This document shows positions 32,305 through 59,217 of a stretch of DNA of 64,000 bases, one piece after another (the stretch's first letter is position 1; every line of letters begins with the position of its first letter). A program made the translations under genes and the position numbers. The stretch is from Bacteroidales bacterium (GTDB taxonomy: Bacteria > Bacteroidota > Bacteroidia > Bacteroidales > UBA4417): the NCBI GenBank assembly GCA_038237165.1, contig JBBRYZ010000001.1, positions 30,199 to 94,198 of the forward strand, given 5' to 3'. The notes beneath the pieces are model-generated. The model was given only the letters and a program-made list of their open reading frames with translations, did not search any database and was not told the origin of the DNA.

Positions 32305-32438
32305 GAGGTAGGAAGTCGGGAGACCGAAGACGGAAGCCGGGAGACGGCAGATAAGAGAAGGAGTTGGTTGCAAAACAAAAATCTAAGTATCATTTGTGAT
32401 TTTCAAATTCCGGTCTTCCCTCTCCGGTCTTCCAGCCC
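32305..32438. repeat. Period-9 repeat element with inverted arms (array A)
   Basis: The left arm ggaagtcgg gagaccgaa gacggaagc cgggagacg (32311-32346) and the right arm ccggtcttc cctctccgg tcttccagc (32410-32436) are imperfectly complementary. The element fills the dsbD-trxA intergenic gap. Confidence 0.7.
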
Positions 32439-32756
32439 CTATATTAATTTGTTCAATTTGTTCTGAAATTCTTTTTTGGGAGCTGCACCGGTTATTTTAT
32501 CGACTATCTCCCCGTTTTTGAAGAAAAGTATGGTAGGGATATTCCGGATTCCAAACCTGGCTGCAAGTTCCTGTTCTTTATCCACATCCACTTTTCCAAC
32601 TATTGCCCTACCCTCGTAATCAATATGAATTTCATCCAGAATAGGTCCGACGATTTTACAAGGGCCACACCATTGTGCCCAGAAATCGATAATTACAGGT
32701 TGATTTGATTGCAGTACCACTTCATCGAAGTTGCCTGCAGTTAATTCTTTTGCCAT
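32439..32756 (-). CDS. trxA: Thioredoxin
   Basis: 105-aa ORF with the canonical WAQWCGPCK active site. Confidence 0.93.
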   Translation of the reverse strand: MAKELTAGNFDEVVLQSNQPVIIDFWAQWCGPCKIVGPILDEIHIDYEGRAIVGKVDVDKEQELAARFGIRNIPTILFFKNGEIVDKITGAAPKKEFQNKLNKLI

Positions 32757-32770
32757 GATTTCCTTATTTT

Positions 32771-32800
32771 AAAAAGGCGAAACACATTGTTTCGCCTTTT
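32771..32800 (-). terminator. Rho-independent terminator after the 134-aa thioredoxin-like gene
   Basis: Hairpin ggcgaaac-acatt-gtttcgcc (32776-32796) flanked by an A-run and a T-run. On the minus strand it is followed by tttttaaaa. Confidence 0.7.
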
Positions 32801-32828
32801 GATTAAACTTACCAATGTATTGTTACTA

Positions 32829-33233
32829 TTACAATCCTTTTTTTGCAGATTTCAAGGCGGAAGCAAGTTCCTGGTCGGATTTAGCTAAACTGGCCTGGCT
32901 GATGAATGCTTTGGTTTTGGCATTAAAAAAATACACAACGCCAGTAGCCTTGTAACGTTGAATTGCCTGATCTAAGCCGTATTTCTTCAGTTCTTCAGCC
33001 GATTTCTTAGTTGTATTGGCATCGGTAACATCGTTAGCCACAAATTGAAAGGCCATGTCTTTGTTGTTTTCCATCAAAGCTCCCATAGCCCGCTGACCAT
33101 TCTGCTGACAAACGGGACACCAGTCAGCTTTGTTGATAACTGCAATTACTTTAGGCCCCGACTGAGCGAATGCTGAAACTGAGACTAACAGTACGAGAAC
33201 TGCACTTACGATAATTGATTTTACTGTTTTCAT
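32829..33233 (-). CDS. Secreted thioredoxin-like protein (CPVC motif)
   Basis: 134-aa ORF with a signal peptide and a WCPVC redox-type motif. Confidence 0.5.
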   Translation of the reverse strand: MKTVKSIIVSAVLVLLVSVSAFAQSGPKVIAVINKADWCPVCQQNGQRAMGALMENNKDMAFQFVANDVTDANTTKKSAEELKKYGLDQAIQRYKATGVVYFFNAKTKAFISQASLAKSDQELASALKSAKKGL

Positions 33234-33387
33234 GATTTTAGTTTTTTGAAATTGTTAAATGATTGCTGATTAATTACAATCATATTGTCGCAGAAAAAAC
33301 AATTCCTGACAAAAAAGATAATTTTATTTCAGATATTTTTCAAAAAAATTAATTATCATACAGTTGCATACGGATCATAGTAAAATA

Positions 33388-33419
33388 AAACAGGCATTAG
33401 TGGGTACTAATGCCTGTTT
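33388..33419 (-). terminator. Rho-independent terminator after the DsrE-like gene
   Basis: Stem aacaggcattag / ctaatgcctgtt (12 bp). On the minus strand it is followed by ttttatttta. Confidence 0.7.
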
Positions 33420-33440
33420 GTTATTGAAATAAAAATTATT

Positions 33441-33869
33441 CTAAAACGTCAGTACTTTTGCCCCGCTTTTCAGGTAATCCGTCAATGGTTTCCCCATTCC
33501 TTTAACATCAAAGCCTAATTTTCGTAGATCATCAGCAATTCCATAGGCATTGGCGCATGCAACGCAAGCTTCAATCACTACACCATCATCTTGCATGGCT
33601 TTCAGTTTTTCCTGAATTTTTATGTTTTCAGAAGTCAGTTTTGCGGAAGGCCCCCAGATTATCAGGGTCACATCTTTAAACCATCCCTGGGTTTTTGCTG
33701 CGTGCGTGTACATCAGAGCCACGCGTTCGGCAACATAAGGGTCATCACTTGCCCATAGTACAACAAGTTTATCGGAAGGATCTGACGTGGGCACTGCCTG
33801 TGCCTGCAAACCTGAGTGACTAAGCATCAAAAGACAAATTAATATAATTAATGACAGTTTTGCTTTCAT
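33441..33869 (-). CDS. Secreted DsrE/DsrF-like family protein
   Basis: 142-aa ORF with a signal peptide and a DsrE-like pattern (LVVLWASDDP...IIWGPS...IEACVACANAYG). Confidence 0.6.
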   Translation of the reverse strand: MKAKLSLIILICLLMLSHSGLQAQAVPTSDPSDKLVVLWASDDPYVAERVALMYTHAAKTQGWFKDVTLIIWGPSAKLTSENIKIQEKLKAMQDDGVVIEACVACANAYGIADDLRKLGFDVKGMGKPLTDYLKSGAKVLTF

Positions 33870-33935
33870 ATCACGTTGTTTTGACTGATTTAATAATTTG
33901 GTTAATTATGAGAAGATAATCAATTTTGAAAGGAT

Positions 33936-34664
33936 TCACAGTGTAATGAAATCCTTAATCCAACCCGAGGCAGGATTTGCTTTAATAAATTCAGGCTCGG
34001 CGAATTGTTCTATTTTCCCTTCGTTCATTATCGCTATATGCGTGCCAAGAGTAAAAGCCTCGTGTAAATCATGCGTAACCATTATAAAGGTAAGACCCAA
34101 TTCACTATGCATTTGTTTGATTTCATTTTGCAGGTTTCGGCGCGTAATGTTATCAAGTGCACCAAACGGTTCGTCCATCAGCACAATTTTCGGGTTGGCG
34201 GCCAAAGCCCTTGCTACGCCGACGCGCTGCTGTTGCCCTCCGCTTAGCTGATCAGGATAATTGTCGAGTTGTTGCTCATCAAATCCCATCATTGTAGCCA
34301 GCTCGGATACCCGCTGATTTTGTGCCTCTTTTTGATTCTCCGAAATACTCAGAACAAATTCCATATTTTGCTTTACCGAAAGGTGCGGAAAAAGGCCGCC
34401 TTGCTGTATTACGTAACCTATATTCCGCCGGAGCTGTATTTTATCCCAATGCCGGATGTCAGTTCCCATTACTTTTACTTGTCCTGAATCAAAATCGGTC
34501 ATGCCATTGATCAGTCGCAGCAAAGTTGTTTTGCCGCAACCGCTTGGACCGATGATTGTGATAAAAGCGCCTTCCGGAATAGTTAACGAAACAGAACGCA
34601 GTACCGGGTTTCCGGCCTGGTACGATTTTGTTACGCCTGATATTTCGATGATCGGATTAACCAT
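33936..34664 (-). CDS. ABC transporter ATP-binding protein, OpuC/EgtV-like (quaternary amine family)
   Basis: Walker A GPSGCGKTT, signature LSGGQQQR and Walker B LMDEPFGALD. Adjacent to the fused permease-SBP gene. Confidence 0.85.
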   Translation of the reverse strand: MVNPIIEISGVTKSYQAGNPVLRSVSLTIPEGAFITIIGPSGCGKTTLLRLINGMTDFDSGQVKVMGTDIRHWDKIQLRRNIGYVIQQGGLFPHLSVKQNMEFVLSISENQKEAQNQRVSELATMMGFDEQQLDNYPDQLSGGQQQRVGVARALAANPKIVLMDEPFGALDNITRRNLQNEIKQMHSELGLTFIMVTHDLHEAFTLGTHIAIMNEGKIEQFAEPEFIKANPASGWIKDFITL

Positions 34665-34673
34665 TTTGCATTT

Positions 34674-36212
34674 TTAATTCAGTAAGTTATTTGACTTTAA
34701 AAACGAAGCGGCTACTTCCTCAGGTGTTTTATTGGCTATCTCCACTTCATAATTTAGTTCCAACATCTTTGCATCATCAATTGTGCCGTTCAAACGACTG
34801 AGCAAATCAACCAGTTCAGGATAGTGCAATAGTATTTCATTCCTCACTACAATGCCTGCCTGGTATGCCGGGAAGAAATTCTTATCGTCGCGAAGCACAC
34901 GCAACTTCATTTGCCGGATACGCGAATCGGTTGAAAATGCATTAATAACATCCACAGTGTGGTTTTCGAGAGCCTGGAATTTCAGGTTCACATCAAGTTC
35001 AACTTTGTTTTTAAAATTGAAAGGATACACTGCCGAAAGTCCTTTAAAGCCATCTTCGCGTTCGTAAAAATCAAATTCAGCGCCAAATATAAACTGATTA
35101 CTTTTTGATGCCAGGTCCGAAAATGTTTTGATGTTTTCCTTGTTGGCTATGTCTTCGGGCAAAGCCAGCGTAAAGGTGTTGTTGAAACCAAAACGGCAGG
35201 CCCAGCTGAGTCCGAATTTTTCAGTATATGCCGTTTTTAACTCTGAATATAAGCTGTCGGGATTGCGGATTTGTGGTTTCTTCAGTACAAACAACCATGC
35301 GGTGCCGGTATATTCGGGATAAATATCAATTTCGCCCGACAATAACGCCGGTTGAATATTGGAAGTGCCCCCACCGATTCCAAACATTCGTTTTACAGGT
35401 ATATCCGTATTCTTTTCAATCATTTGCGAAATAATTTCACCCAGGATATACTGTTCGGCTGTTGGTTTTGAAGCAACAACAATTGTTCTTTTGGTGGTAA
35501 CAGCTGATTTTGACAGAATGGTGAAACCAATTGCCAGTGTTACTATTGCCAAACCGGCATAGGCAAGCCAGCGACGGTATCTGGATGAATGATGTTTGCT
35601 GTTTTTTAATGACTTCTCGAAAAATCCGATTGTAAGATCGGTAACTAGTGCCAGCAAAGCCACGGAAATTGAGCCTGCAAGAATAAGTGAGGAATTGTTG
35701 GTGTTAATACCCCTGTAAATTGCCTGACCCAAACCACCGGCACCAATAAAGGATGCAAGTCCGGCAAGAGCAATGGTCATAACAACCATAGTGCGGAACC
35801 CGCTCAGGATAGTTGGAAAAGCAAGAGGCCAGCGAATCCTTAGGAATATCTGCATTGGAGTAGCACCCATGCCTTTTGCAGCATCCAACAAACGCGGGTC
35901 CACTTCAATTAACCCGGTATAGGTATTCCGGATCATAGGAAGCAGGCCGTAAATAACAAGAACCACCAGTGCATTTAAAAAACCTATTCCTATTAAAGGG
36001 ATGAAGAGGCCAAACATGGCTATCGAAGGAATGGTATAGAGAAAATTTACCACTCCCAATACCAGGTTCCGGATTCGATTATACCGGACCAGCGCAATAC
36101 CCGAACTTACTCCAATAACAACAATTATCAATATGGCTGTAAGCGACAGCACAATATGCTGGAGGAGCAGTTCAAACAAATAATCCTTTCGCTGGAGTAA
36201 AAATGACCACAT
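34674..36212 (-). CDS. ABC transporter permease fused to substrate-binding domain, OpuB/OpuC/EgtU-like
   Basis: 512-aa ORF. The N-terminal ~210 aa form a BPD-type permease (EAA loop LDAAKGMGATPMQIF). The C-terminal ~290 aa form a glycine-betaine/choline-type SBP (IYPEYTGTAW). Confidence 0.8.
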   Translation of the reverse strand: MWSFLLQRKDYLFELLLQHIVLSLTAILIIVVIGVSSGIALVRYNRIRNLVLGVVNFLYTIPSIAMFGLFIPLIGIGFLNALVVLVIYGLLPMIRNTYTGLIEVDPRLLDAAKGMGATPMQIFLRIRWPLAFPTILSGFRTMVVMTIALAGLASFIGAGGLGQAIYRGINTNNSSLILAGSISVALLALVTDLTIGFFEKSLKNSKHHSSRYRRWLAYAGLAIVTLAIGFTILSKSAVTTKRTIVVASKPTAEQYILGEIISQMIEKNTDIPVKRMFGIGGGTSNIQPALLSGEIDIYPEYTGTAWLFVLKKPQIRNPDSLYSELKTAYTEKFGLSWACRFGFNNTFTLALPEDIANKENIKTFSDLASKSNQFIFGAEFDFYEREDGFKGLSAVYPFNFKNKVELDVNLKFQALENHTVDVINAFSTDSRIRQMKLRVLRDDKNFFPAYQAGIVVRNEILLHYPELVDLLSRLNGTIDDAKMLELNYEVEIANKTPEEVAASFLKSNNLLN

Positions 36213-36232
36213 ACAGAATATCCTGATTTAAA

Positions 36233-37198
36233 CTATCTTTCTTTCACCCAAAGCGAATCTGTAAAATAATTCCGGCTATCGGAAAAATGTTGTTCTACCC
36301 CGAATCCATTGCTTGTCGCTAATGTTTCAATCTTTTTCAAATCAAATTTACGCGAAAGTTCCATATAAACTGTTTCCCATTGGTTAAAGCGGAAATTTTT
36401 TGCCAGGGATTCAATATGCACAGTCTGATCTTTTGTTGAAACCAAAAAGCTTTTAACCGCGCCTGTTTGAGGATTGTAATCTATATGATGTTTAAAATTG
36501 CTGATGTCAAAATCGGCACCCAGTTCCCTGTTCAGGCGGATAAGATGATTGAGGTTAAATCGCTGGGTGTGGCCATGTGGATCATCATAAGCTTTCAAAA
36601 TTACATCAGGCGATTTTTTGAGGTCGAAACCAATCATAACTTTATCGCCTTTGTGTGCAAATTCGGAAAGCTGGCTTAAAAACAAATTCAATTCTTCATC
36701 CGGGAAATTGCCAATATTGGAACCCAGGAATAAAATTACTTTCCGTAGTCCGGAATAACCGTTAAGTTGTTTCATAACCCGGAAAAAATCGCCGGTCTGG
36801 GCATTCACTTTTAGTGAAGGGATTTCCTTTGCAAGGCTTTCAACCAGTTCGTTGTTGGCTTTCGGGCTTATATCGATAGGTATATATTTGAGGCCTGAAG
36901 ATCGGCTAATCATCGCATTCAGCAATATTTTCGTTTTCAATCCATCGCCCGAACCCAGTTCAATTACCTCGAAGCCTGAAGTACCTTTTATAAATGCATC
37001 AATAATCTGCTCTTTACGGGTTGAAAATATTTCATATTCGCAATTGGTGAGATAATATTCAGGCATGTTCATAATGTCCTGGAAAATGCTGCTGCCGATA
37101 TCATCGTAAAAATATTTCGACAATAGAAATTTTGGATTGGATGACAGACCGCTCAATGTATCGGTAGCCAGTTCGGAAAGAATTGTTAGTTGTTCCAT
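36233..37198 (-). CDS. eanA: L-histidine N-alpha-methyltransferase (EgtD/EanA family; hercynine synthase)
   Basis: 321-aa ORF with KYFYDDIGSSIFQDIMNMPEYYLTNCE, IELGSGDG and FLGSNIGNF, typical of EgtD-family methyltransferases. Confidence 0.85.
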   Translation of the reverse strand: MEQLTILSELATDTLSGLSSNPKFLLSKYFYDDIGSSIFQDIMNMPEYYLTNCEYEIFSTRKEQIIDAFIKGTSGFEVIELGSGDGLKTKILLNAMISRSSGLKYIPIDISPKANNELVESLAKEIPSLKVNAQTGDFFRVMKQLNGYSGLRKVILFLGSNIGNFPDEELNLFLSQLSEFAHKGDKVMIGFDLKKSPDVILKAYDDPHGHTQRFNLNHLIRLNRELGADFDISNFKHHIDYNPQTGAVKSFLVSTKDQTVHIESLAKNFRFNQWETVYMELSRKFDLKKIETLATSNGFGVEQHFSDSRNYFTDSLWVKER

Positions 37199-37202
37199 GG
37201 TT

Positions 37203-38510: not shown

Positions 38511-38547
38511 AGTAAACAGGATTTTTTAGATTGATAAAAAGCAAGTA

Positions 38548-38832
38548 TTAGTCTTTAGTGATCTCAACGCCTTTCCAGAAAGCTACGCGGTCCTTGATAC
38601 CCTTTGCCAAGTAGCTCGGATCGGGATAATACCATACCGCATCCTCGTTTTTCTTGCCGTCAACATCAAGGGTGTAATACGATGCGGTGCCTTTCCAATG
38701 GCAAACAGTGTGTGTGTCGCTGTTTTTAAGATAGGATTTGTTTACTGATTCAACCGGGAAATATTGATTTCCCTCCACATTAACTGTGTCATTGCTCTCG
38801 GCTATGATTTTGCCGTTCCAAATTGCTTTCAT
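38548..38832 (-). CDS. DUF427 domain protein
   Basis: 94-aa ORF. The pattern A.WNG..IAES......EGN.YFP...V......S...T.C.WKG.A.YY is typical of DUF427. Confidence 0.7.
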   Translation of the reverse strand: MKAIWNGKIIAESNDTVNVEGNQYFPVESVNKSYLKNSDTHTVCHWKGTASYYTLDVDGKKNEDAVWYYPDPSYLAKGIKDRVAFWKGVEITKD

Positions 38833-38863
38833 AATAGTGTGTTTTAAAATTGTGTATTAGTTA

Positions 38864-39442: not shown

Positions 39443-39513
39443 TTCTAATTTGATTGTTAAGATTAGTCGGAGAAAATCAAAAACCTGACAACCGTTTTAT
39501 GCAAATTTCCATT

Positions 39514-40113: not shown

Positions 40114-40475
40114 TCCTCTATTGATAGCACCAGGATAAATATATTTTGAGGATATGTTTTCCATAATAGGAATTTTCTATGCATTAAAACATTTATTGAG
40201 TAGAATAGGTTCATTTATAACACAATCGTAGTATTAATACGATTAGTCGCCAGATTCTTACTTCCTGACAAAGAAATCTGAGTAATTATCAAAAAAAAGT
40301 TCCAAAAGAAAAATAAAACACCGGCAAACATACTTGGCGCACTGTTGCCGGTGAAACTATAATTATGGTATAAAAACGGAATTAACGCTTGAGCTTATTA
40401 AAATTTACAATTAAAGCGCAAGAAAAAAGGGTTTAAGATTTATTGTTGTGATCACACTAATTGAAGTTTACTCAA

Positions 40476-40745: not shown

Positions 40746-40749
40746 GATT

Positions 40750-46255: not shown

Positions 46256-47008
46256 CTATTTTTTCTTTCTCGTCAGATCAAGCAATCCATTTATAATGGT
46301 CAAAGGATGCGTGGGGTTACCCGGAATATAAAGATCCACGTGATAGTTATCCAGGAAACTGCGATTCAGAGCCGAGCTTCCTGCAAAAATACCTCCGCTT
46401 ATGGCATCCGTTCCTACCAGTACAATAATTTTTGGTTCAGGAATAGCATCATAACAAATCTGAAGCGGTTCGGCCATGCTTTCAGTAATCGGGCCGGTAA
46501 TAACAATCCCGTCAGCATGACGCGGAGAAGCTACAAACTCAATTCCGAAACGCCCCATATCGAACTGTACATTGTTGGCGGCTCCCAGTTCCCACTCACA
46601 ACTATTGTCGCCACCGGCTGAAACCTGGCGCAACTTCAATGAGCGACCAAACAGGCTGTGAATTTCTTTTCTCACTTTTGCGGGGTTAACGGTTATCGGA
46701 TTTTCATCTCCTTCTTTAATTATAAGGCTTTCACGCTCGTTGACTGATATCTTATAGTCGGTTGTAAATTGAATTTTTTCAGGAAACCGCAAAGCACATT
46801 CGCCGCAAAAGGTACATTTACCCAAGTCTATGCTTACCGGATTTATAGAAATCGCGTTAACAGGGCAAATATCCAGCAACTCTTTTTCATCCACTTTTAC
46901 AGAAGTAATCAAAGGCCTGCCCCTGAAAATCCCGGGAACTTTGGCTGTAGTTACATCAGGAATAAACTGTTGGCCTTGATGGTAGAGGATTTTGAGGTTA
47001 TTGTACAT
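46256..47008 (-). CDS. NuoB/HycG-like small subunit with N-terminal ferredoxin-like domain; cluster ligands degenerate
   Basis: The C-terminal part (ASPRHADGIVITGP...EPKIIVLVGTDAISGG...IPGNPTHP) aligns to the NuoB/HycG pattern, but only one of the four canonical Cys positions remains. The N-terminal region has C-P plus CTFCGEC. Confidence 0.75.
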   Translation of the reverse strand: MYNNLKILYHQGQQFIPDVTTAKVPGIFRGRPLITSVKVDEKELLDICPVNAISINPVSIDLGKCTFCGECALRFPEKIQFTTDYKISVNERESLIIKEGDENPITVNPAKVRKEIHSLFGRSLKLRQVSAGGDNSCEWELGAANNVQFDMGRFGIEFVASPRHADGIVITGPITESMAEPLQICYDAIPEPKIIVLVGTDAISGGIFAGSSALNRSFLDNYHVDLYIPGNPTHPLTIINGLLDLTRKKK

Positions 47009-47043
47009 GGGTGGGTTAGTTATAAGTTAATGGTCATTCTATT

Positions 47044-47223
47044 GTTTCAGAGTTTCAATGTTTCATTGCGCTTCGCGCGTTTCAGGTTCCAAGGGCCAAG
47101 TTTAAATTCATAGTCATGTAGTTGTTTGGTCATCCGGTTTTCGATCTAGAGTTCTTTGCAATTCTGAAACATGAAACCTGAAACTATCCAATCCATAACC
47201 CATAGAACCTAACCCCCAATCCC
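47044..47223. repeat. Period-9 repeat element with inverted arms (array B), intercistronic
   Basis: Left arm gtttcagag tttcaatgt ttcattgcg cttcgcgcg tttcaggtt (47044-47088). Right arm ctgaaacat gaaacctga aac... (from 47164), followed by ccaatccat aacccatag... up to 47223. Confidence 0.75.
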
Positions 47224-48729
47224 TTACAAATCATGCCCGCTATACGACAAGTTAAAACTCTTGTTGCAAATCGGAAAATCTGAAATTTCATTGTTCCTTA
47301 CCGAAAGTGCAAGCGCCAGCCAGTTGTGGAACGAAGGATCTTTTATTTTATAGATTATCAATTCACCGTTTGCACCGGTAATGGCACAATGGCAGATTTC
47401 ACCGCGCCATCCTTCTACCAGCGAAAGTGTAAATAATCCGGCTCGCGGACTGTTCAATACAGGTTTTTCTTTTGATGTTTCAGCCAGAGGAATTTCAGCC
47501 ATCAGGGCACGCAGGTATTTCATGGATTGAAAAACTTCTTTTTTTCGAATCTGAACCCTGGAATACACATCGCCATGATGCTTTATTACAGGCTCGTGAT
47601 TGAGTTCAGCATACAAGCAATGCGGATGTGATAAGCGGGTATCTCTCATCACGCCCGAAGCCTTGGCGGCCATCCCGACCGCACCAATCTTCGCAGCATC
47701 TTCAAAAGAGACCACCCCGGTGCGTTCGAAACGCGACAATGCGCTTGGCAGATTGGAAAGTTCCTTGTTCATCTCGGTAAAGTCAGGTTCAAAGGTGTCG
47801 AGAACCTGCAAAAGCCTGTCAGCCAGAGCCTGGGAAAATGGAAACTTATTCTCCATTGGTCTGATCAACCCTTTCGACAAGCGGTTACCGCACCATTCCT
47901 GCAGAAAATTAACGATGGGTGTGCGAAGTCTGCCAAAAACGGAACTGCCAAGCTGGTAAGCGATATCGGTGCAAACCGCACTCAGATCGCCGGTGTGTAT
48001 GGCTATCCTTTCAAGTTCAAGCGCAACAGTGCGGGAAAAGTTGATATCGCGCGTTGTTTCGAAGCCACACAAGCTTTCCCACACATGGGCAAAAGCCGTT
48101 GATTGACCAACAGCAGTATCACCAGTGATACCTTCGGCTAAGGTAGCCAACTGGTTAAGATGTTTCTTTTCCAGGAATAATTTTTCAATTCCTCTATGCT
48201 GATAGCCCAGTTGAATTTCGAGATGCAGAATCTGTTCGCCATTACATATAAACCTGAAATGACCCGGTTCAATAATTCCGGCATGTATTGGCCCCACTCC
48301 TACTTCGTGAAGTTCCTCACTGTCGATCGAATAAAACGGATAATTGGCAATAGTCTGACTTTTATCAAAACGATCATAAGAATACCGCACCGGTTTCAGC
48401 CAGGGATGATCCGAATATTTTATCCCAAAGTTCTCATGGATTTCGCGCTCAAACTTTTCGAAACAGAGATTCTTTGCCGTAAAAGAAGGATGCTCCTCTT
48501 TATCATCAATCAAACAAGAAGAAACATAAATCAGATGATCAGCATCATCGGCTATACAGCAGATCAACTTAGTTGAATCACCTTCCTGATACCCGAAATA
48601 ATTCACACAATGCCTTTCGGGCTTCTCAGCCACCATTCCCGTATTCAGTATAAGGAAAGCGCTATACGAAATCTCAGGAATATCTGAAACGGGGACGGAC
48701 TGATTGTTTTTTATCGATAGATAGTGCAT
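47224..48729 (-). CDS. Group-4 [NiFe]-hydrogenase-like large subunit fused to NuoC-like domain (HycE/HyfG/NuoCD-like), lacking NiFe cysteines
   Basis: GPIHAGIIEPGHFRF and LGYQHRGIEK are typical of HycE/NuoD. Where the N-terminal CxxC would sit the sequence is GITGDTAVGQS, and the C-terminus is SFNLSYSGHDL in place of DPCxxCxxR. The ORF is open to 48807, but that extension reads through repeat array C, so the ATG at 48729 is preferred. Confidence 0.8.
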   Translation of the reverse strand: MHYLSIKNNQSVPVSDIPEISYSAFLILNTGMVAEKPERHCVNYFGYQEGDSTKLICCIADDADHLIYVSSCLIDDKEEHPSFTAKNLCFEKFEREIHENFGIKYSDHPWLKPVRYSYDRFDKSQTIANYPFYSIDSEELHEVGVGPIHAGIIEPGHFRFICNGEQILHLEIQLGYQHRGIEKLFLEKKHLNQLATLAEGITGDTAVGQSTAFAHVWESLCGFETTRDINFSRTVALELERIAIHTGDLSAVCTDIAYQLGSSVFGRLRTPIVNFLQEWCGNRLSKGLIRPMENKFPFSQALADRLLQVLDTFEPDFTEMNKELSNLPSALSRFERTGVVSFEDAAKIGAVGMAAKASGVMRDTRLSHPHCLYAELNHEPVIKHHGDVYSRVQIRKKEVFQSMKYLRALMAEIPLAETSKEKPVLNSPRAGLFTLSLVEGWRGEICHCAITGANGELIIYKIKDPSFHNWLALALSVRNNEISDFPICNKSFNLSYSGHDL

Positions 48730-48758
48730 GGAAATTTTAATGGTTAATAAATTGTTTC

Positions 48759-48967
48759 GGGTTTGAAGAGTTTGAAGAGTTTCTATTGTCAAATAGTGGT
48801 CATACAATTGTCATACGGTTGTCATACGGTTGCAGCTCTGACATTGAAAATCTTAAACTCTTCAAACATTTCAAACTCTTCAAACATTTCAAACCCTTCA
48901 AACATTTCAAACTCTTCAAACTCTTCAAACATTTCAAACTCTTCAAACATTTCGAACTCTTCAACTT
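48759..48967. repeat. Period-9 repeat element with inverted arms (array C), intercistronic
   Basis: Left arm gggtttgaagagtttgaagagtttc (48759-48783). The spacer contains 3x an 11-mer gtcatac(a/g)(a/g)tt (48799-48831). The right arm has ~12 nonamers aaac(t/a)(c/t)ttc (48855-48967), complementary to the left arm. Confidence 0.9.
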
Positions 48968-50394
48968 CACATCGGCAACAAAGCCACACTCTCCTTAAGC
49001 ATTTGCACAAAAATTGCAGGCGGATTTAATCCAAGATAAACTGCCGTTGCAAGTAAAATAAACTGCGAAAGTGATTCCCAAGGACTTATTTTTACCACCT
49101 GCGAATCATCAAATCCAACTGCCGGAACAAAAAGCACTTTGAACATATTTTTTCCAAAAGCCCATATTATCATGGTTAACAGTAAAAGAACTGCAATCAA
49201 CAGGAGAAATTGTCTTGCATCGAAAATGGATTTAAAGATCAGAAACTCACTCACAAACAATCCGGAGGGAGGCATAGCTGTGGCGCTCATAAATCCCAGA
49301 AGCAATACCATGGCGCCTGTCGGGTTGTATTTAAAGTAATTACCGATGTGGTAAATGCTCTTGTTTTGAAAAACAGTGTAAAGTTGGTTAAACTGGAAGA
49401 ACAGGCTGGATTTCACAAATGCATGCAGTATAATATGCAGAATGGCAGCGTAATAGCCAATCCCGCCGGCAGCCACGCCAAGCATAACAATACCCATATG
49501 CTCTATACTGGAATAGGCAAACATACGCTTGATATTTTTTACTTTCAGCATATACACCGTGGACACAAAAATAGAAAGGAATGCTGCCGAACCGATTACC
49601 AGTTGAGCCCAATGCAGAACCGGAGTATTTGCCAGAACAATGTAGAAGCGAAAAATACCGACAAAGCCAAGGTTCATTAATATTGTGGAAAACAATGCGC
49701 CAGCAGGTGCAGGAGCCTTATCCTTGGCATCAATGCCGGCAGTAAACATGGGAACCAATCCGAGTTTGGCGGTAAATCCTGTAAAAATGAACAGGAAAGC
49801 CATCCTTAGCCAGACCGGGTTAAGCTCAGCTCTGCGGGCCAAAAGGTTACTGAATGAAAGGTCATCGGAACCCGCGTGTTGTAGTGAAAGACTCAGAAAA
49901 AGAATCCCTATAAAAATAAAAGTAATGCTGATGGCACAGATGAAAACATATTTCCAGGTACCTTCGAGCGCCAGTTTATTGCGGTGATGATAAATAAGGG
50001 CAGAAGCGCTAAGAGTGGTAATTTCGGTAAAAATCCATGTCACGGCAATATGGTTGGAGAGGTAACCCGCGCTGATAGCCATGATCAGCAATACTATTGC
50101 CGTTAGGTAAATGGCCCTTGTGTGCGGGCTTTCATGATGGTTTTCAATATAAATGTAACTGTGGATCATAGCAGGCACGGCTATAATACTAGCGGTTATC
50201 AGCAATATGACACCAAGAGAGTCGAAAGTAAAATAGATAAGTTCCGTACTTCGGTAATGCAGGCAGGCGTATATGGTTATGAGCCATTGCAGCACCAGGA
50301 ACAAGCCTGCCAGCGCATATACAAGCAATTTGTTCCTGCTGAAAAACAGGATTATGGCAATGGCAATTGAGCCCAACAGATAAATTCCAATCAT
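48967..50394 (-). CDS. NuoN/NuoM/HyfF-like proton-conducting antiporter-type subunit
   Basis: 475-aa polytopic ORF with Mrp/NuoN-type motifs (the FTGFTAKLGLVPMF region and SSIEHMG). Confidence 0.8.
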   Translation of the reverse strand: MIGIYLLGSIAIAIILFFSRNKLLVYALAGLFLVLQWLITIYACLHYRSTELIYFTFDSLGVILLITASIIAVPAMIHSYIYIENHHESPHTRAIYLTAIVLLIMAISAGYLSNHIAVTWIFTEITTLSASALIYHHRNKLALEGTWKYVFICAISITFIFIGILFLSLSLQHAGSDDLSFSNLLARRAELNPVWLRMAFLFIFTGFTAKLGLVPMFTAGIDAKDKAPAPAGALFSTILMNLGFVGIFRFYIVLANTPVLHWAQLVIGSAAFLSIFVSTVYMLKVKNIKRMFAYSSIEHMGIVMLGVAAGGIGYYAAILHIILHAFVKSSLFFQFNQLYTVFQNKSIYHIGNYFKYNPTGAMVLLLGFMSATAMPPSGLFVSEFLIFKSIFDARQFLLLIAVLLLLTMIIWAFGKNMFKVLFVPAVGFDDSQVVKISPWESLSQFILLATAVYLGLNPPAIFVQMLKESVALLPM

Positions 50395-50412
50395 CAGTTT
50401 CCTTTTTCCCGG

Positions 50413-51045: not shown

Positions 51046-51069
51046 TGTATCAAACGGTTTTTAAACATT

Positions 51070-51975: not shown

Positions 51976-51976
51976 G

Positions 51977-54004: not shown

Positions 54005-55992
54005 GATAAAATATTAAAAACGGTGAGGATAAACATGGCCAGGATAAAAACGATGCCGTATAAAACGTACGACTGTATTTTGCCATTTGTAACAAAACTG
54101 AAATAGTTGGCCGAATAGTTCAGTCTGTGCGTTATTGGGTTAATCAGTTTGCGTTCAATAATATCATGGTAATGTGATACATAAGAACGTTTTTCGGGAA
54201 AGATTTCCCCGGGTTTCAACTCTACATAATGCTTACTTTCTATCAGCATGAAGTTAAGTATTTTCCCAAGAGGTTTTGAAAATGATTTGGCAGTGTATTG
54301 TATCCGGCTTGTTCCTGCCACATAACCGCATCCCCAGGTAGGACCGTAACTTTCAACCCGATTCTTCATTACTTTTGATCTGACGAGCCAGGTCAGTGCT
54401 ATGATTCCGATAAGCAACAGCGAATACAAACTGACGTTAGTAACAGTTACAGCATATCCTGCAACAATGTCTGAGTTTGAACCAAGCGGATTTATATTTG
54501 TAAGCGCATTCCCAATAATTCCAAGATAAAACTGAGGAATAAAAGCCACGCTGAGCATAATTACAATAATCACATATTGAGGCACAAGCATTATTTTCGA
54601 AACCTCGTGAGGCTTATGTTGTAATTCAGTACGGGGCTGACCGAGAAAAATGGTTCCGAATGTTTTTGTAAAAGTAAGTACCGATAAACCACCAATAACA
54701 CTTAATCCGGCCAACGAAAGAATAAACAGCAAAATCTGGCTTAGGCTGTTGGCATGAATCCCTTCTATCAGACCATTATAAATAATAAATTCCGAAATAA
54801 AACCATTAAACGGTGGAAGCCCGCCTATAGCAACGGCTCCGATAAGGAATATGGCTGCTGTCCGGGGCATTGATTTTATCAGGCCACCCAGATGCTCCAT
54901 ATCGCGGGTATGGCATTGCTGGTAAACTGATCCCGCCGAATAAAACAGCAAGGATTTGAAAAGTGAATGATTAAGTACATGAAGCAACGCGCCGCCAAAT
55001 CCCAGGAAGTACATCACCGGCGAACCGTTTCCGATTCCTATCAGCCCGATTCCAATCCCTATTCCGATGATCCCGATATTTTCGATAGTACAATAGGCCA
55101 GCATCTTTTTAAAATCGCGGTGAACCGAGGCATTGAGTATGCCATATATTCCGGTAAGTACTGAAAGTGAAAGAATTATCTCACCCAGCAAAACATAATC
55201 TTTACTCAGAAATGTGATCATCCTGAATATCCCGTAAATACCCAGTTTTACAATTACGCCCGACATTACGCCCGAAATATGCGAAGGCGCCGCCGGGTGT
55301 GCATGTGGCAGCCAGCTGTGCAGCGGAATGAATCCTGCCTTCAATCCGAAACCGGCGAAAAACACAAGAAACAGCCAGATATTGTTATTTGATTGAAAAA
55401 AGCTGCGGATGGCTTCGAAACTGAATGAGCCGGTTGAGCTGTAAACCCATACAAAACCAATGGTCAGGAAAACAACGCTGATATGCATTTGCACCAGATA
55501 GTTAATTCCGGCTTTCAGGTTTTGTGTGTTATGTGAATCAAATATCACCAACAGCATCGAGGTTAGCGACATCACTTCCCAGGCAAGCAGAAAAGCGAAA
55601 CCGTTTTGCAACATGCAAACCCAAACCATAGCCAGATGAAACATAATGAAAAGTGCCCAGTGGAGAGTAAGCTTAGGTGCCGGATTCGTGTAAGCTCTGA
55701 GGTAACCGGTACCATAAAATACGCCTGTGAGTGAGGTGAAGTTGATAATCAGGATAAACCATGCCGATAACCCATCGATCCTGACAATGGTATCGCCCAT
55801 AAAATTACCGGTGAATATCGAAAATTCAACAACCTGTCCGCTCAGCGCGGGGAAAGCCAGCCAGGATGATATCAGTGCGTTAATCAGAACCGTGAGCGCA
55901 GCTGTATATGCTTTATAGGTCGAAGGGATAAAATAGAGCACAACTATGGCAAGCAGTGTAACTATCCAACTCACATTAACCATCTCAATCAT
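54001..55992 (-). CDS. NuoL/HyfB-like antiporter-type subunit (copy 1)
   Basis: 663-aa paralog of the downstream gene (WLPHAHPAAPSHISG, CTIENIG, GPTWGCGY). It overlaps that gene by 4 bp. Confidence 0.8.
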   Translation of the reverse strand: MIEMVNVSWIVTLLAIVVLYFIPSTYKAYTAALTVLINALISSWLAFPALSGQVVEFSIFTGNFMGDTIVRIDGLSAWFILIINFTSLTGVFYGTGYLRAYTNPAPKLTLHWALFIMFHLAMVWVCMLQNGFAFLLAWEVMSLTSMLLVIFDSHNTQNLKAGINYLVQMHISVVFLTIGFVWVYSSTGSFSFEAIRSFFQSNNNIWLFLVFFAGFGLKAGFIPLHSWLPHAHPAAPSHISGVMSGVIVKLGIYGIFRMITFLSKDYVLLGEIILSLSVLTGIYGILNASVHRDFKKMLAYCTIENIGIIGIGIGIGLIGIGNGSPVMYFLGFGGALLHVLNHSLFKSLLFYSAGSVYQQCHTRDMEHLGGLIKSMPRTAAIFLIGAVAIGGLPPFNGFISEFIIYNGLIEGIHANSLSQILLFILSLAGLSVIGGLSVLTFTKTFGTIFLGQPRTELQHKPHEVSKIMLVPQYVIIVIMLSVAFIPQFYLGIIGNALTNINPLGSNSDIVAGYAVTVTNVSLYSLLLIGIIALTWLVRSKVMKNRVESYGPTWGCGYVAGTSRIQYTAKSFSKPLGKILNFMLIESKHYVELKPGEIFPEKRSYVSHYHDIIERKLINPITHRLNYSANYFSFVTNGKIQSYVLYGIVFILAMFILTVFNILS

Positions 55993-56479
55993 AACAAGAA
56001 TTCTATGATCTTTTTTTGAAAGATGGCAAATTTAGGAAAAATATGCGGTTTGTTGCATCCTTAAGTTCCATTGATAGCTTAGGACAGTTGAAATGGTTTA
56101 GAAAAAATATTTTCCATGACACTCATTAACAGCCAACTAACATATACATTGCCGGCAATATGATAAATGCAACAGAAGTAAAAAATATTGATTCCAGATA
56201 CTGTATTCACATATCCGGTTAGTGTATGCATACTGGCAGGTTGTCTGATACCAACAATAAGAAAATTTGAAAATATGATGCATTATTATAGACTATTCAC
56301 TTTCAACTAACTAAAAATAGCCTGCTGTATATAAACCTATTACAAAGTCCATTTTTCTTCACTTCCAAGCTTTATCTTTACTCCGGTTAGTTCCAATTAG
56401 CGCGATAATTACCGTGTAAGTCTATTCACTTTTCATGCGAATCACGAATCCAAATCAAGCTTTATCTATCGGGGGAATT

Positions 56480-56512
56480 AACTTTTCCAGAGTATTAAAC
56501 TCTGGAAAAGTT
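56480..56512. promoter_or_regulatory. Perfect 14-bp inverted repeat (aacttttccagagt-attaa-actctggaaaagtt) in a divergent promoter region
   Basis: Read directly. It lies 64 bp upstream of the tcdA ATG and ~490 bp upstream of the Ehr-like operon start. No T-run follows on either side, so it is more operator-like than terminator-like. Confidence 0.45.
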
Positions 56513-56575
56513 CGGCTGGCACTATTCATTATTCACTATTCACTACCTTCGTCAGGTTTTAATAAAGCACTTTAT

Positions 56576-57307
56576 ATGCCCGCACAACAATGGCTTAGTC
56601 GCACCGAATTGCTTATTGGTACGGAGAAACTTAACATACTTCGTGATAAACATGTGCTTATTGCCGGACTAGGCGGCGTTGGCGCCATTGCGGCCGAGCA
56701 GATATGCCGCGCCGGTATAGGCATTATGACCATTATTGATGGAGATACCGTTCATGCGAGCAACCGCAACCGCCAGCTTCCTGCACTTAAAAGCACCGAA
56801 GGCATTGCGAAAACAGAGGTAATGGCAAAACGGCTGCTTGATATCAATCCCAACCTGAAACTCACCGTACTCAATGAATATATAAAAGATGAACGAACCC
56901 TCGAAATCCTGTCGCAAGGCTATGATTATGTGGTAGATGCCATAGATACGCTTTCGCCTAAAGTTTTCCTGATCTACAATTGCGTTCAACTTGGATTGCC
57001 GGTAGTGAGTTCGATGGGAGCCGGAGGAAAATTTGATCCTGCGCAGGTTCAGGTAGTTGATATTGCTGATTCCTATAACTGCAAACTGGCATATTACATG
57101 CGCAAACGACTTCACAAAATGGGTGTGTGGAAAGGTATAAAAGTGGTTTTCTCACCCGAAATAGTAGAGCGCAGTTCTGTAATTCTGCAGGAAGGCGAAT
57201 CCAATAAAAAATCGAATGTTGGAACTATTTCGTATATGCCGGCGATATTTGGATGCTACTGTGCTTCTGTGGTTATAAGGGAACTTTTGGAAGAGAGGGA
57301 AGGCTGA
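56576..57307 (+). CDS. tcdA: tRNA threonylcarbamoyladenosine dehydratase (ThiF/MoeB-type E1-like)
   Basis: R.ELLIG..KL..L....VLIAGLGGVGA Rossmann motif, DGD.V..SN.NRQ and VDAID. The ATG at 56576 gives the ~243-aa length typical of the family. The upstream part of the ORF (from 56435) is unlikely to be coding. Confidence 0.8.
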   Translation: MPAQQWLSRTELLIGTEKLNILRDKHVLIAGLGGVGAIAAEQICRAGIGIMTIIDGDTVHASNRNRQLPALKSTEGIAKTEVMAKRLLDINPNLKLTVLNEYIKDERTLEILSQGYDYVVDAIDTLSPKVFLIYNCVQLGLPVVSSMGAGGKFDPAQVQVVDIADSYNCKLAYYMRKRLHKMGVWKGIKVVFSPEIVERSSVILQEGESNKKSNVGTISYMPAIFGCYCASVVIRELLEEREG

Positions 57308-57566
57308 GTTGTTGAAGGGTTTAAGGTTTAAGGGTTTAAGGGTTTCAAGGTTCAAATGCTTCGCGTTCAAATTGTTCAAATGTTCTATTGTTCAATTGTT
57401 CAATTATTCTATTGTTCTATTGTTCAATTGTTCAAATGATCAAATGTTCTATTGTTCAAATATTCAAATATTAAAATGTTCAATTGTTCAAGGTTCAAGG
57501 TTCAAATGCTTGCAAAGTTCAATGCTTCGCGTTCAAATGCTTCGCGTTCAAACGTTCAATTGTTAC
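57308..57566. repeat. Period-9 repeat array D (gggtttaag-type, core aatgcttcgcgttcaaat, then gttcaaatg/ttctattgt-type nonamers)
   Basis: Read directly. The gcttcgcgttcaaa core occurs three times (about 57357, 57525 and 57539). About 28 nonamer periods in total. Confidence 0.9.
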
Positions 57567-57665
57567 CTCCAAAATCCTGCAAACAGTTAATCCTTTTAAT
57601 TATTTTCAAGGCTCTCTGCCGACCTACTCTGGCAATGCGTTCAGCAAAGCAATCTTAACATTCAC

Positions 57666-57842
57666 AATTACACGAATCCTTTCACTAAACTACACGAATC
57701 CTTTTGCTCAATTGCACGAATCCTTTTACACAATTGCACGAAGCCTTTTGCTGAACTACACCAATCCTTTTCATAAATTACACGAACCTTTTAATAAACT
57801 ACCCGAAGCCTTTTATTCAAAAGCCCGAAGACTTTTCCCTTA
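57666..57842 (+). repeat. Eight tandem 22-bp (one 21-bp) iteron-like repeats, consensus a(a/c)t(t/a)(a/g)CACGAA(t/g)CCTTTTnnnna
   Basis: Core CACGAA/CCCGAA starts at 57671, 57693, 57715, 57737, 57759, 57781, 57802 and 57824. Confidence 0.9.
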
Positions 57843-58132
57843 GTGATACATACCTTTTTTAAAATCTTATCCAAACTGCCTTTCGAAAAGCTAAGAGCGA
57901 GTATTTAATCAGAATTAAGATGTTACACAATAAAGTATTTATGATTTGATTGATTCCGGAATGGCTGGTTGCAGGATGCTTTCTTCTGGACGTCTCACAT
58001 CATAGTCAAAAATAAAGGCTTTATTTGCAACAGCGCCTGGTTAGGAATAATTTTGTATTTTTGGGATGTACATATGATTTAAAACTACCCGTTTATTATC
58101 ATTCTGATACAAACCACTAACGCAATTTGAAC

Positions 58133-58858
58133 ATGAGAATATCAACCACCTTCTTTTCCCTCATCATTGCCGGACTGTTTATTTCGGACACAGTAACAGC
58201 ACAGAAGCCTAATACGCTAACCCCAAAAGAGAAAAAGCAAGACTGGCAACTACTTTTCGATGGAAAAACCTTAAATGGGTGGAAAGGCTATAACAGCGAA
58301 AAAATGTTTAGCTGCTGGAGTGTGCAGAACGGCGAACTGGTTTGCCAGGGCGAAGGCGGAAGCGTTACTGCCGGTGATATTATCACCGCAGCGGATTTCG
58401 ACAACTTCGAGTTGGATCTCGACTGGAGCATCAGCAAGGCCGGCAACAGCGGCATTTTTTATCATGTGCTGGAAGGACCACAATACCACGCAGCCTACGA
58501 AACAGCTCCCGAATACCAGCTGATTGACGAATTGGGATGGCCCGAAAAGCTGGAAGAATGGCAAAAAACCGGCGCCGATTATGCCATGACACCAGCCCTG
58601 GCAAATAAAAAGCTTATGCCCGTCGGCGAATGGAACCATACCCGGATTATTTATAACAAAGGCCATGTGGAACACTGGCTCAACGGGTTGAAAGTTGTTG
58701 AATTCCAGGCTTATTCACCAGAATGGAAACAGGAGAAAGAAACGGGCAAATGGAAGGATTACCCGGGCTATGCTATTTCGCAAACAGGCCGTATCGGTCT
58801 GCAAAACCATGGCAGCGGGGTTAAATTCAGGAATGTAAAAATACGGAGGTTGGATTAA
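58133..58858 (+). CDS. Secreted DUF1080 (3-keto-disaccharide hydrolase-like, LamG-fold) protein
   Basis: Signal peptide followed by W..LFDGK.L.GWKGY, NSGIFY, EYQLID, NGLKVVEF and GRIGLQNHGSGVKFRN.KI, all typical of DUF1080. ATG at 58133 (TTG at 58127 is possible). Confidence 0.85.
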   Translation: MRISTTFFSLIIAGLFISDTVTAQKPNTLTPKEKKQDWQLLFDGKTLNGWKGYNSEKMFSCWSVQNGELVCQGEGGSVTAGDIITAADFDNFELDLDWSISKAGNSGIFYHVLEGPQYHAAYETAPEYQLIDELGWPEKLEEWQKTGADYAMTPALANKKLMPVGEWNHTRIIYNKGHVEHWLNGLKVVEFQAYSPEWKQEKETGKWKDYPGYAISQTGRIGLQNHGSGVKFRNVKIRRLD

Positions 58859-58960
58859 AAGGGTTGAAAGGGTTTGAAGAGTTTGAGGCACTTCAACTTC
58901 GCTCACTGTGACAAGTTTGAAGAGTTGTTGAATTCCAATTGTTTGCCAATTGAAAAATCC
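58859..58960. repeat. Period-9 repeat array E (gggttgaaa gggtttgaa gagtttgag ...)
   Basis: It begins directly after the DUF1080 stop codon. It has the same orientation and nonamer type as the start of array D. Confidence 0.75.
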
Positions 58961-58999
58961 AGAACGCCCCATTTCTTGGTAAAAAGCATGAGTTTGTTT

Positions 59000-59068
59000 C
59001 CTTCTCCTTGAGGAGAAGGTGCCGAAGGCGGATGAGGTGAAAAGGTGCCCAACGGGCGGATGAGGTCA
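59000..59068. repeat. REP-like element: 8-bp hairpin ccttctcc-ttga-ggagaagg followed by two ~26-bp direct repeats (aaggtgcc.aa.ggcggatgaggt.a)
   Basis: Read directly. The opposite-strand translation gives the SPHPPSAPSPQGEG-type pseudo-peptide typical of intergenic palindromic repeats. Confidence 0.7.
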
Positions 59069-59075
59069 AACAAAT

Positions 59076-59217
59076 GAACATTTGAACAATAGAACATATG
59101 AATAAATGAACATTTGAACGCGAAGCATTAAATCCCATCAATCCCTTCAATCCTTTCAATCCTTTCAATCCCTTCTATCCCATCAATCCCACCAATCCCA
59201 TCAATCCCATCAATCCC
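59076..59217. repeat. Period-9 repeat array F, an inverted copy of array D architecture
   Basis: Segment 59076-59129 (aacatttgaacaatagaacat...gaacatttgaacgcgaagcatt) is the reverse complement of the array D core region. It is followed by ~10 nonamers atccc(a/t)tca up to the ProX-like start codon. Confidence 0.85.

Follow-up and report, generated by a model that had tools for sequence, protein, structure and literature searches.

Polar short tandem repeat arrays in the intergenic spacers of a Bacteroidales contig and its relatives

In a 64,000-nt stretch of the Bacteroidales bacterium assembly GCA_038237165.1 (contig JBBRYZ010000001.1, positions 30,199 to 94,198 of the forward strand; referred to as the window), several intergenic spacers are filled with short tandem repeats that run right up to the ends of genes, and this raises the question of what kind of element these repeats are and why they lie where they do. 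An original prediction, made from the sequence alone, had described six such sites (A to F, window positions 32305–59217) as one family of nonamer arrays with inverted arms. Our analysis shows that they are members of a class of bacterial repeats already described elsewhere, here extended to a new host lineage, and are not a new kind of element; very probably they are simple-sequence arrays of the type described as short tandemly repeated repetitive (STRR) sequences or as long simple sequence repeats, LSSR(5-11), and are characteristic of a Lentimicrobiaceae-like clade of Bacteroidota. The best explanation as a whole, to which we assign a probability of about one half, is that STRR-like arrays arise and turn over in place, that their orientation is filtered through the transcript, and that they play a role as leaders or hairpins.

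Arrays in the window and their turnover among relatives

Tandem Repeats Finder (TRF) combined with direct reading placed tandem arrays at all six sites, in agreement with the original prediction. With a period of 6–12 and at least three copies, the window contained 8 arrays (512 nt in total) compared with 0–1 in 20 block shuffles, and none of the 15 other large intergenic gaps that were read contained an array. The predicted constant period of 9 bp proved wrong: autocorrelation and TRF gave periods of 7 at A, 7–8 (weak) at B, 9, 11 and 18 at C, 8, 15 and 22 at D, 9 (weak) at E, 8 and 16 in the left part of F (F-left) and 9 in its right part (F-right), with units of 8 and 9 nt dominating within the window itself and higher-order super-periods of 18, 27 and 32 nt detected by TRF. 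The predicted abutment of arrays on gene ends was confirmed, as D and E begin straight after stop codons, F runs into an ATG, and A and C, and also B, lie against stops.

A search with the ThiF-like protein encoded in the window retrieved 35 loci in reference genomes (labelled L001 and so on), of which the 27 closest belong to Lentimicrobiaceae or Bacteroidales metagenome-assembled genomes (MAGs), share the gene order and encode ThiF-like proteins 75–93% identical to that of the window. A metagenome scan added 55 further loci (best 93–95% identical), and the best relatives overall were 89–95% identical at the protein level. As had been expected of a related set of elements, the arrays were not unique to the window: the close relatives contained 80 arrays in 395 kb, compared with 2 in 109 kb of Chitinophagaceae and other outgroup loci, and 74 of the 80 were located outside called open reading frames (ORFs). 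Among these 80 arrays the period was 7 in 52, 8 in 12, 9 in 10 and 11 in 3 cases, and over the window and its close relatives together period 7 was the commonest (68/113 arrays). Among the metagenome loci, array density was 3.0 per 10 kb where the tRNA-editing-domain protein was at least 82% identical and approximately 0.4 beyond that, a difference of about 8-fold. About a quarter of the spacers of at least 40 nt carried an array (26% between co-directional, 31% between convergent and 17% between divergent gene pairs). Since they are present in independent assemblies, including complete chromosomes, the arrays are not assembly artefacts. They create spurious low-complexity ORFs, and several MAG or metagenome contigs end within one (L001 6083–6232, L009 1824–1917, L023 1–48, L042 6241–6316); arrays appear to break short-read assemblies and are therefore probably under-counted in draft genomes. 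A literature search combining Lentimicrobium with tandem repeats found no paper describing such arrays in Lentimicrobiaceae.

The same spacers were occupied in most relatives, but by units and lengths that differed, and such turnover was seen in the NuoB|NuoCD and NuoCD|antiporter spacers, after ThiF and before the tRNA-editing-domain gene. In the NuoCD|antiporter spacer, which is site C, the window has 12 copies of GAAGAGTTT, L004 about 3 copies of AACGAAT, L003 23 and L022 66 copies of this same heptamer (the latter in a block structure, with L003, L004 and L022 at 83–85% DNA identity), L019 arrays of TGGAATG and AAACACT, L034 10 copies of AGTGAAA, L023 13 copies of CTCAATCCC, and L014 a 73-nt spacer with no TRF-called array. 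Two strain pairs, both compared as consensus assemblies, had an indel in no array (L036/L037, 99.75% identical over 10.9 kb, and L068/L010, 99.4% identical over 10.2 kb). On the evidence of these pairs the arrays are stable between strains, while copy number shifts between species and the unit itself shifts at greater distance. The arrays thus stay in the same spacers and turn over in place, and the mobility signature sought in the comparison with related genomes was not seen.

The units belong to a small vocabulary that recurs at different sites. By exact matches of canonical units (single-linkage clustering of 7-mers chained into one big cluster), the families GTTTGAAGA, GTTCAATT, AATAGTG and CCCTAA-like were found at non-orthologous sites in different genomes, with GTTCAATT present in the window, L007, L017 and L036/L037. 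The site C unit of the window recurs after ThiF in L009 and in the E–F spacer of L038, L041, L045 and L069, the same four loci in which GTTTGAAGAG arms lie in the spacer of E, and the F unit of the window resembles the site C array of L023. At orthologous positions, L025 carries a D-type array in the place of D, arrays with the GCTTCGC core occur at the D position in L025 and at the F position in L024, and F-left is conserved in L024, L040 and L043, while the F-right expansion is absent from L043, the closest relative at that site.

Some further repeats were observed among these loci. An 11-mer family, GTCATAC(G/A)GTT, occurs in three genomes (window 48786–48832, 3–4 copies; L007 16737–16889, 14 copies; L020 975–1015, 3–4 copies), adjoins other arrays in every case and is unusual among the units in being conserved; it could mark a protein-binding site. 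L015 contains, within a 1.4-kb non-coding stretch, a ~373-bp higher-order repeat (4557–5945) of alternating AATGCAA and ACTTTGC heptamer arrays that are near reverse complements. A palindrome of ~21 nt (AGAGACGCGA-NGC-TCGCGTCTCT and variants), resembling a small element of the repetitive extragenic palindromic (REP) type, lies beside arrays at different spacers in several relatives (L003 2480–2505, L022 2568–2587, L044 3435–3454, and just upstream of the tRNA-editing-domain gene in L039 and L036); the 21-nt form found in relatives, AGACGCGA..TCGCGTCT, does not occur in the window. The distant relatives L058, L062, L063, L064 and L088 (45–63% identical for the tRNA-editing-domain protein) have in common a short array of TAGTTGA (3.6–4.4 copies) at one position, ~80–120 nt upstream of the tRNA-editing-domain gene, which may represent another kind of small conserved repeat.

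Base composition of the arrays relative to gene ends

Each array was oriented to its nearest gene. G exceeded C in 21/24 of the arrays located up to 30 nt past a stop codon (17/20 after collapsing identical units), and C exceeded G in 20/22 of those located up to 30 nt ahead of a start codon (15/17 after collapsing), the start-side arrays having a composition of ~0.08 G and ~0.38 C. Stop-side and start-side polarity differed with a Mann-Whitney p of ~1e-5 to 2.5e-7, a value that includes arrays of related genomes and hence data points that are not fully independent. The baseline upstream of all starts was already G-poor (G = 0.11). Within the window the polarity flips with gene strand, A–C serving minus-strand genes and D–F plus-strand genes, which argues against an effect of the replication strand.

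Particular tracts repeated this pattern across relatives. A TTAGGG-like G-rich tract follows the NuoCD stop, in the position of the stop-side arm of B, in 6 relatives, and CCCTAA/CCCCAA-like tracts lie directly before the ATG of the NuoCD and tRNA-editing-domain genes in many relatives. A crude motif scan found no TAnnTTTG, the Bacteroidetes promoter motif, in the A, B, C and E–F spacers, in line with co-transcription of the genes on either side.

Layout of the sites, inverted arms and the shared core

The genes flanking the arrays have ordinary functions (thioredoxin, DsbD, a Nuo/Mrp-type membrane complex, ThiF, a tRNA-editing-domain protein and GH18). At site A, on the minus strand, the start-side arm (32305–32352) is C-rich in the sense direction, with GTCTTCC-like units of ~7 nt and a period of 7/21, and is separated by ~24 nt from the DsbD-like start downstream of it (32281); the stop-side arm (32409–32438) is G-rich and GGAAGACCGG-like in the sense direction, pairs with the other arm and ends at 32438 against the stop of the minus-strand thioredoxin gene (32439–32441); the A unit is GGAAGAC, with a period of 7. 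Site B, on the same strand, has a start-side arm (47036–47096) of GTTTCAR/CTGAAAC-type units of 7–8 nt, located ~28–35 nt upstream of the NuoB-like start at 47008 and containing the core GCGCGAAGCGC, a GAA-triloop hairpin at 47068–47078. Its stop-side arm (47156–47223) reads GGGATTGGGGGTTAGG... followed by GTTTCAG units in the sense direction and ends at 47223 against the NuoCD-like stop (47224–47226). Site C, also on the minus strand, consists of a start-side arm (48759–48784; sense AAACTCTTC x2.4) ~30 nt upstream of the NuoCD-like ATG at 48729, a centre (48786–48832) with 3–4 copies of the 11-mer GTCATACGGTT, and a stop-side arm (48855–48966) in which the sense units GAAGAGTTT/GAAATGTTT are repeated 12 times with a period of 9 and a super-period of 18, ending at 48966 against the antiporter-like stop (48967–48969); both C arms have a period of 9.

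On the plus strand, D (57308–57566) lies directly 3' of the ThiF-like stop (TGA, 57305–57307) and has three parts, in order a G-rich GGGTTTAAG/GGTTTAAG x5 tract, GTTCAAWT x16 with a period of 8, and the 15-mer GTTCAAATGCTTCGC, with cores of sequence GCTTCGCG at 57358, 57524 and 57539. The D spacer also contains a G-poor 22-mer array (57663–57815, TACACGAATCCTTTTACTAAAC x6.7), downstream of which two promoter-like TAnnTTTG motifs lie 69–77 nt before the start at 58133. E (58859–58945) is a G-rich degenerate 9-mer tract (GGGTTGAAA/GAGTTTGAA) that starts at 58859, directly after the stop (TAA, 58856–58858) of a 3-keto-disaccharide-hydrolase-like gene. F-left (59069–59128) consists of TGAACATT x5.6 ending in the core GAACGCGAAGCATT and is the reverse complement of the D composite, and F-right (59129–59219), a G-free AATCCCATC x10 array with a period of 9, runs into the ATG (59218) of the tRNA-editing-domain gene. 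A small G-poor array on the same strand that the first reading had missed (56520–56545, CACTATT x3.7 by TRF) precedes the probable true start of the ThiF-like gene by 30 nt, and TTTTCAC, a related unit, occupies the equivalent place in L003 and L022. The longest ThiF-like ORF starts at 56435; since the matches of relatives begin only at residue 47–48, translation probably begins at the ATG at 56576 instead (window 56435–56578). The ThiF-like leader also contains a perfect 13-bp hairpin (56480–56492 / 56500–56512), followed by the CACTATT array.

Inverted arms, predicted for most arrays, were clear at A, B and C, where stop-side and start-side arms consist of reverse-complementary units (established by comparison at B and C and by reading at A), and weak at D and E–F. 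The predicted RNA folding of complete elements was borne out to the same extent: the sense RNA of A folded with a minimum free energy of -42.8 kcal/mol (z = -2.46), that of B with -50.6 kcal/mol (z = -2.28) and that of C with -56.1 kcal/mol (z = -3.28), whereas the folds of D and E–F were unremarkable compared with dinucleotide shuffles (z ~-1.1). The core that B, D and F had been proposed to share was confirmed: nine occurrences of GCTTCGCG were counted where 1.1 would be expected, and five of the nine lie in B, D (three) and F on the minus strand. The core contains GCGAAGC/GCTTCGC, a motif that forms a very stable GNA-triloop mini-hairpin (PMC13037366), and the sense strand of B reads GCGC-GAA-GCGC.

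D can be aligned with the reverse complement of F as one composite running from a G-rich 9-mer array through AATGCTTCGCGTTCAAAT to a GTTCAWWT array, and D and F are therefore homologous arrays in inverted orientation. They bracket the 3-keto-disaccharide-hydrolase-like gene (window 57308–59217), which lies between the ThiF-like and tRNA-editing-domain genes and is present in some relatives and absent from others, as seen when L008, L010, L011 and L012 are compared with L004, L015, L018 and L024; D and F could have begun as the two arms of one ancestral spacer that was split by insertion of the hydrolase gene.

Between E and F lies an 8-bp hairpin, ccttctcc-ttga-ggagaagg (59000–59019), followed by two copies of a 28-bp direct repeat (AAGGTGCC..GGCGGATGAGGT; window 59000–59070); L043 retains the hairpin and the first of the two repeat copies beside its orthologous array, and no Rfam match was found. 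Elsewhere in the window, a 111-bp (37-codon) tandem repeat of ~4 copies, rich in Lys/Glu/Asp/Thr/Pro codons (21154–21661) and located at and past the 3' end of the ORF 18656–21181, looks like coding low-complexity sequence and has no connection with the intergenic arrays. Seemingly intergenic gaps at ~4654–4880 and ~13861–14085 contain two small paralogous ORFs of ~75 codons. In the products of both, a conserved stretch, (K/M)WKRVHH..W.FWIF, precedes a hydrophobic segment, and downstream of each ORF is a large cluster of plus-strand genes.

Explanations for the arrays and their kinship with known repeats

According to the explanation we favour, arrays would arise and change within spacers as short seeds undergo slippage or unequal recombination, without inserting as mobile units, and the transcript would filter which array survives where, retaining G-rich arrays by stops and C/A/T-rich, nearly G-free arrays by starts. 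That the polarity arises at the level of the transcript has, in our judgement, about even odds, the pattern being observed and its cause deduced; the polarity of the Xanthomonas and Nostoc repeats (see below) is reproduced here with quite different units, which speaks for a general, transcript-level cause over a sequence-specific one. The G-free tract would act as an almost structure-free ribosome loading zone, and such a zone would matter because Bacteroidetes initiate translation without use of Shine-Dalgarno sites and with mRNA structure tuning initiation (PMC3155529, PMC6847099, PMC7797042). Start regions (-50 to +20) with an array were predicted to fold with -1.6 kcal/mol and others with -6.1 kcal/mol (p = 6e-5, n = 11 vs 164), and the array-bearing regions had less predicted structure despite their higher GC content. 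In spacers that contain both a G-rich stop-side arm and a start-side arm complementary to it (A, B, C and, weakly, E–F), the two may form a long imperfect hairpin that spans the distance from stop to start and could lend stability to the operon mRNA or couple the translation of adjacent genes; the stop-side arm begins 0–3 nt after the stop and therefore lies within reach of the terminating ribosome. We regard a function as loading pad or in coupling as tentative and rather doubtful. Considerably more speculative is the idea that polar arrays form a lineage-wide expression device for initiation without Shine-Dalgarno pairing, in which a generic complementary G-rich tract, beginning 0–3 nt past the upstream stop, would keep the spacer closed until opened by the terminating ribosome, and by it alone, exposing the G-free loading pad and so providing translational coupling built from repeats. 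The shared vocabulary (TTAGGG-like vs CCCTAA-like, GTTTGAAGA vs TCTTCAAAC) would in that case let any stop-side arm pair with any start-side arm, which would explain why an arm pairs as well with the arm of another spacer as with its own partner.

That equality is one of several points that weigh against the explanation as a whole. Over 25 array-bearing co-directional spacers, the arms of one spacer paired with -14.85 kcal/mol and with the arm of another spacer with -14.93 kcal/mol (p = 0.51); arms from different array-less spacers paired more weakly (-9.85 kcal/mol). The complementarity is therefore generic to a G-rich/C-rich vocabulary and not site-specific. The mean z-score of whole spacers was -1.0 with arrays, -1.5 without and -2.3 in the outgroup, values that are somewhat generous as they were derived from mononucleotide shuffles; several array spacers folded worse than their shuffles, and that of L034 was almost structure-free (-1.9 kcal/mol over 111 nt). 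The start-region comparison comprised only 11 array-bearing starts, each start being taken crudely to be the first ATG of its ORF, and the polarity counts share the partial dependence of related genomes. In some relatives the same sites have spacers of 73–79 nt with 2–3 seed copies or none (L004, L014), and as these manage with short, nearly repeatless spacers, the arrays are dispensable. The explanation assigns no separate benefit to the G-rich bias after stops, and a likely promoter lies downstream of D and its 22-mers, which are therefore not part of a leader adjoining a start.

We considered the hairpin as a defining feature of the arrays and dropped it because the stop-side and start-side arms of one spacer are not specifically complementary. 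A comparison of spacer halves with the reversed 3' half likewise showed no specific pairing (p = 0.22), and only 9/87 arrays had their own unit arrayed in reverse complement no more than 500 nt away. Hairpins occur at some sites and are absent at others, so that inverted arms, proposed as a shared property, are optional.

A simpler possibility is that the arrays are neutral by-products, a lineage-specific quirk of replication or repair generating slippage arrays of 7–11 nt without function, and that their polarity reflects mere tolerance (without G there is neither an ATG, GTG or TTG nor structure before starts) or a transcription-coupled mutational bias. In line with this, units and lengths differ between species at one site and some relatives are nearly arrayless there, higher-order duplications such as the block pattern of L022 and the super-periods of the window are present, and the G-poor baseline before all starts shows that a general constraint already exists. 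Tolerance alone, however, leaves the G-rich bias after stops (17/20) unexplained, and the recurrence of the families GTTTGAAGA, GTTCAATT, AATAGTG and CCCTAA-like at non-orthologous sites and of a CCCTAA-like leader before the ATG of several genes in many relatives argues against pure neutrality, which we consider unlikely. It is still less probable that the arrays act chiefly as non-B DNA or RNA elements, with G-quadruplexes (G4) and the GCGAAGC mini-hairpin affecting transcription, replication pausing or local genome stability, a role of the sort proposed for the GGGNATC repeats of Xanthomonas and Nostoc. Polarity and preference for aligned ORFs are the same as in the GGGNATC repeats (PMC4692102), 14/16 canonical G4 motifs in the ingroup loci (395 kb) were intergenic and the outgroup had none, 8 G4 motifs lay antisense beside starts (including F-right, on whose antisense strand the only canonical G4 of the window lies), the TTAGGG-like tracts follow the NuoCD stop in 6 relatives, and the mini-hairpin core (PMC13037366) recurs in the orthologous arrays of L024 and L025. 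Against this, only a minority of the arrays is G4-capable (GTTCAAAT, CACTCTT, AACGAAT and GTTTGAAGA are not), copies range from 3 to 66 with no preference for four units, and GCGAAGC/GCTTCGC is only ~2-fold denser in intergenic than in coding DNA (3.4 vs 1.8 per 10 kb). The G-quadruplex was rejected as a unifying feature, G4-capable arrays being a minority.

The arrays might also serve as multi-site binding platforms for an abundant protein such as ribosomal protein S1, a cold-shock protein, Rho or a nucleoid protein. C-rich, G-poor and unstructured tracts resemble Rho loading sites, and a small unit vocabulary recurs across sites and genomes. A binding-platform role of this kind has been suggested for the TAACTGA repeats of Beggiatoaceae, which like the arrays abut starts in one orientation (PMC4679880). 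The wide variation of units at one orthologous site is hard to square with a sequence-specific binder and no candidate protein was identified in the analysis, and we judge this role quite improbable. Mobile hairpin elements resembling miniature inverted-repeat transposable elements (MITEs) or REPs and inserting between genes are poorly supported: the inverted arms at A, B and C and the homologous inverted composites D and F, flanking a gene present in only some relatives, are what such elements would leave, but the window sites had no common termini and, on reading of the flanks, no target-site duplications. Different units occupy the same spacers across species, short seeds grade into long arrays (3 -> 23 -> 66 copies), Rfam gave no match, and arrays are present in relatives without the inserted gene (L010, L011). 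Contingency loci, at which a change in copy number would switch neighbouring genes (phase variation), are as poorly supported and very improbable. Tandem repeats next to starts with copy numbers that differ between species would suit them, but the units are imperfect and the neighbours are housekeeping genes (a respiratory complex, thioredoxin/DsbD and the tRNA-editing-domain gene), and phase variation was rejected on the two strain pairs, 99.75% and 99.4% identical, without an array indel.

The original prediction had found the arrays to match no named repeat class. This holds for REP elements, bacterial interspersed mosaic elements (BIMEs) and MITEs, but similar arrays have been catalogued in other phyla as STRR, LSSR(5-11) and heptamer repeats. 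REP/BIME elements are likewise intergenic, repetitive and sometimes hairpin-forming but have a palindromic unit of 20–40 nt, in contrast to the direct repeats of 7–11-mers seen here, and of the terminal inverted repeats and target duplications of MITEs neither was seen at the window arrays. Clustered regularly interspaced short palindromic repeats (CRISPRs), correctly set aside in the prediction, have repeats of 23–55 nt and unique spacers of comparable length, whereas the window arrays are head-to-tail 7–22-mers without spacers. An Rfam scan of window positions 30000–62000 (E <= 1) gave no match.

Among the heptamer repeats are the oriented TAACTGA repeats described by MacGregor 2015 just upstream of starts in Beggiatoaceae, Cyanobacteria and some Bacteroidetes (PMC4679880). 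The starts at these arrays lack Shine-Dalgarno sites, and some Bacteroidetes have long heptamer arrays that are missing from the same spacer in close relatives (PMC4679880). The arrays analysed here share the single orientation beside start codons and differ in having many units instead of one; no tandem TAACTGA was found in the window or the ingroup loci, the window having 4 single copies. The LSSR(5-11) of Mrazek 2007, as summarised in PMC4679880, are tandem iterations of 5–11 nt that are longer than expected by chance, with heptamers the commonest, in free-living bacteria with large genomes. The present arrays fit that summary in having units of 7, 8, 9 and 11 nt above chance and heptamers commonest over 113 arrays; LSSR(5-11) is, as summarised there, a descriptive category that is silent on polarity and arms. 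The cyanobacterial STRR, usually of 7-bp units, form hairpins between hupS and hupL of the hydrogenase operon that have been proposed to stabilise transcripts or to couple translation, their function being unknown in 2009 (PMC2670836). The arrays resemble them as short tandem units dispersed in non-coding DNA (here 74/80 outside ORFs, at 2–3 arrays per 10 kb) and in being hairpin-capable between genes of one operon, and differ in phylum, in window units that are mostly 8–9 nt, in hairpins that are optional and in consensus units. STRR, with their family-specific consensus units, are not known from outside filamentous cyanobacteria, while the hosts here are Lentimicrobiaceae/Bacteroidales MAGs.

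The arrays add an anaerobic Lentimicrobiaceae-like clade of Bacteroidota to the few scattered lineages in which intergenic repeats of 7–11 nt are common, and as Bacteroidota initiate without Shine-Dalgarno pairing, this clade is a good setting in which to test whether G-free repeat leaders set translation efficiency. The pattern seen here is that of the GGGAATC / GGGGA(C/T)T (GGGNATC-type) heptamer repeats that Rehm et al. 2015 (PMC4692102) described in Xanthomonas and Nostoc, which are non-coding and mostly located between aligned ORFs, with the G-rich strand being the coding strand up to 50 bp after stops and the non-coding strand up to 50 bp before starts. Those repeats recur at equivalent positions from one related species to the next, with "extensive length and sequence variation", are unlinked to mobile elements or surface genes and have inverted copies able to form stem-loops, and their function was unknown in 2015 (PMC4692102). 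Shared with the arrays of the Bacteroidota clade are intergenic units of ~7 nt, the same polarity, the location mostly between co-directional genes, occupation of the same intergenic positions in relatives with variation in length and sequence, inverted copies capable of stem-loops, and the lack of any association with mobile elements or surface genes; the GGGNATC repeats of Xanthomonas and Nostoc have a unit with at least three consecutive G, prefer four units and form G4, whereas the Bacteroidota arrays are mixed 7-, 8-, 9- and 11-mers, mostly not G4-capable and present in 3–66 copies.

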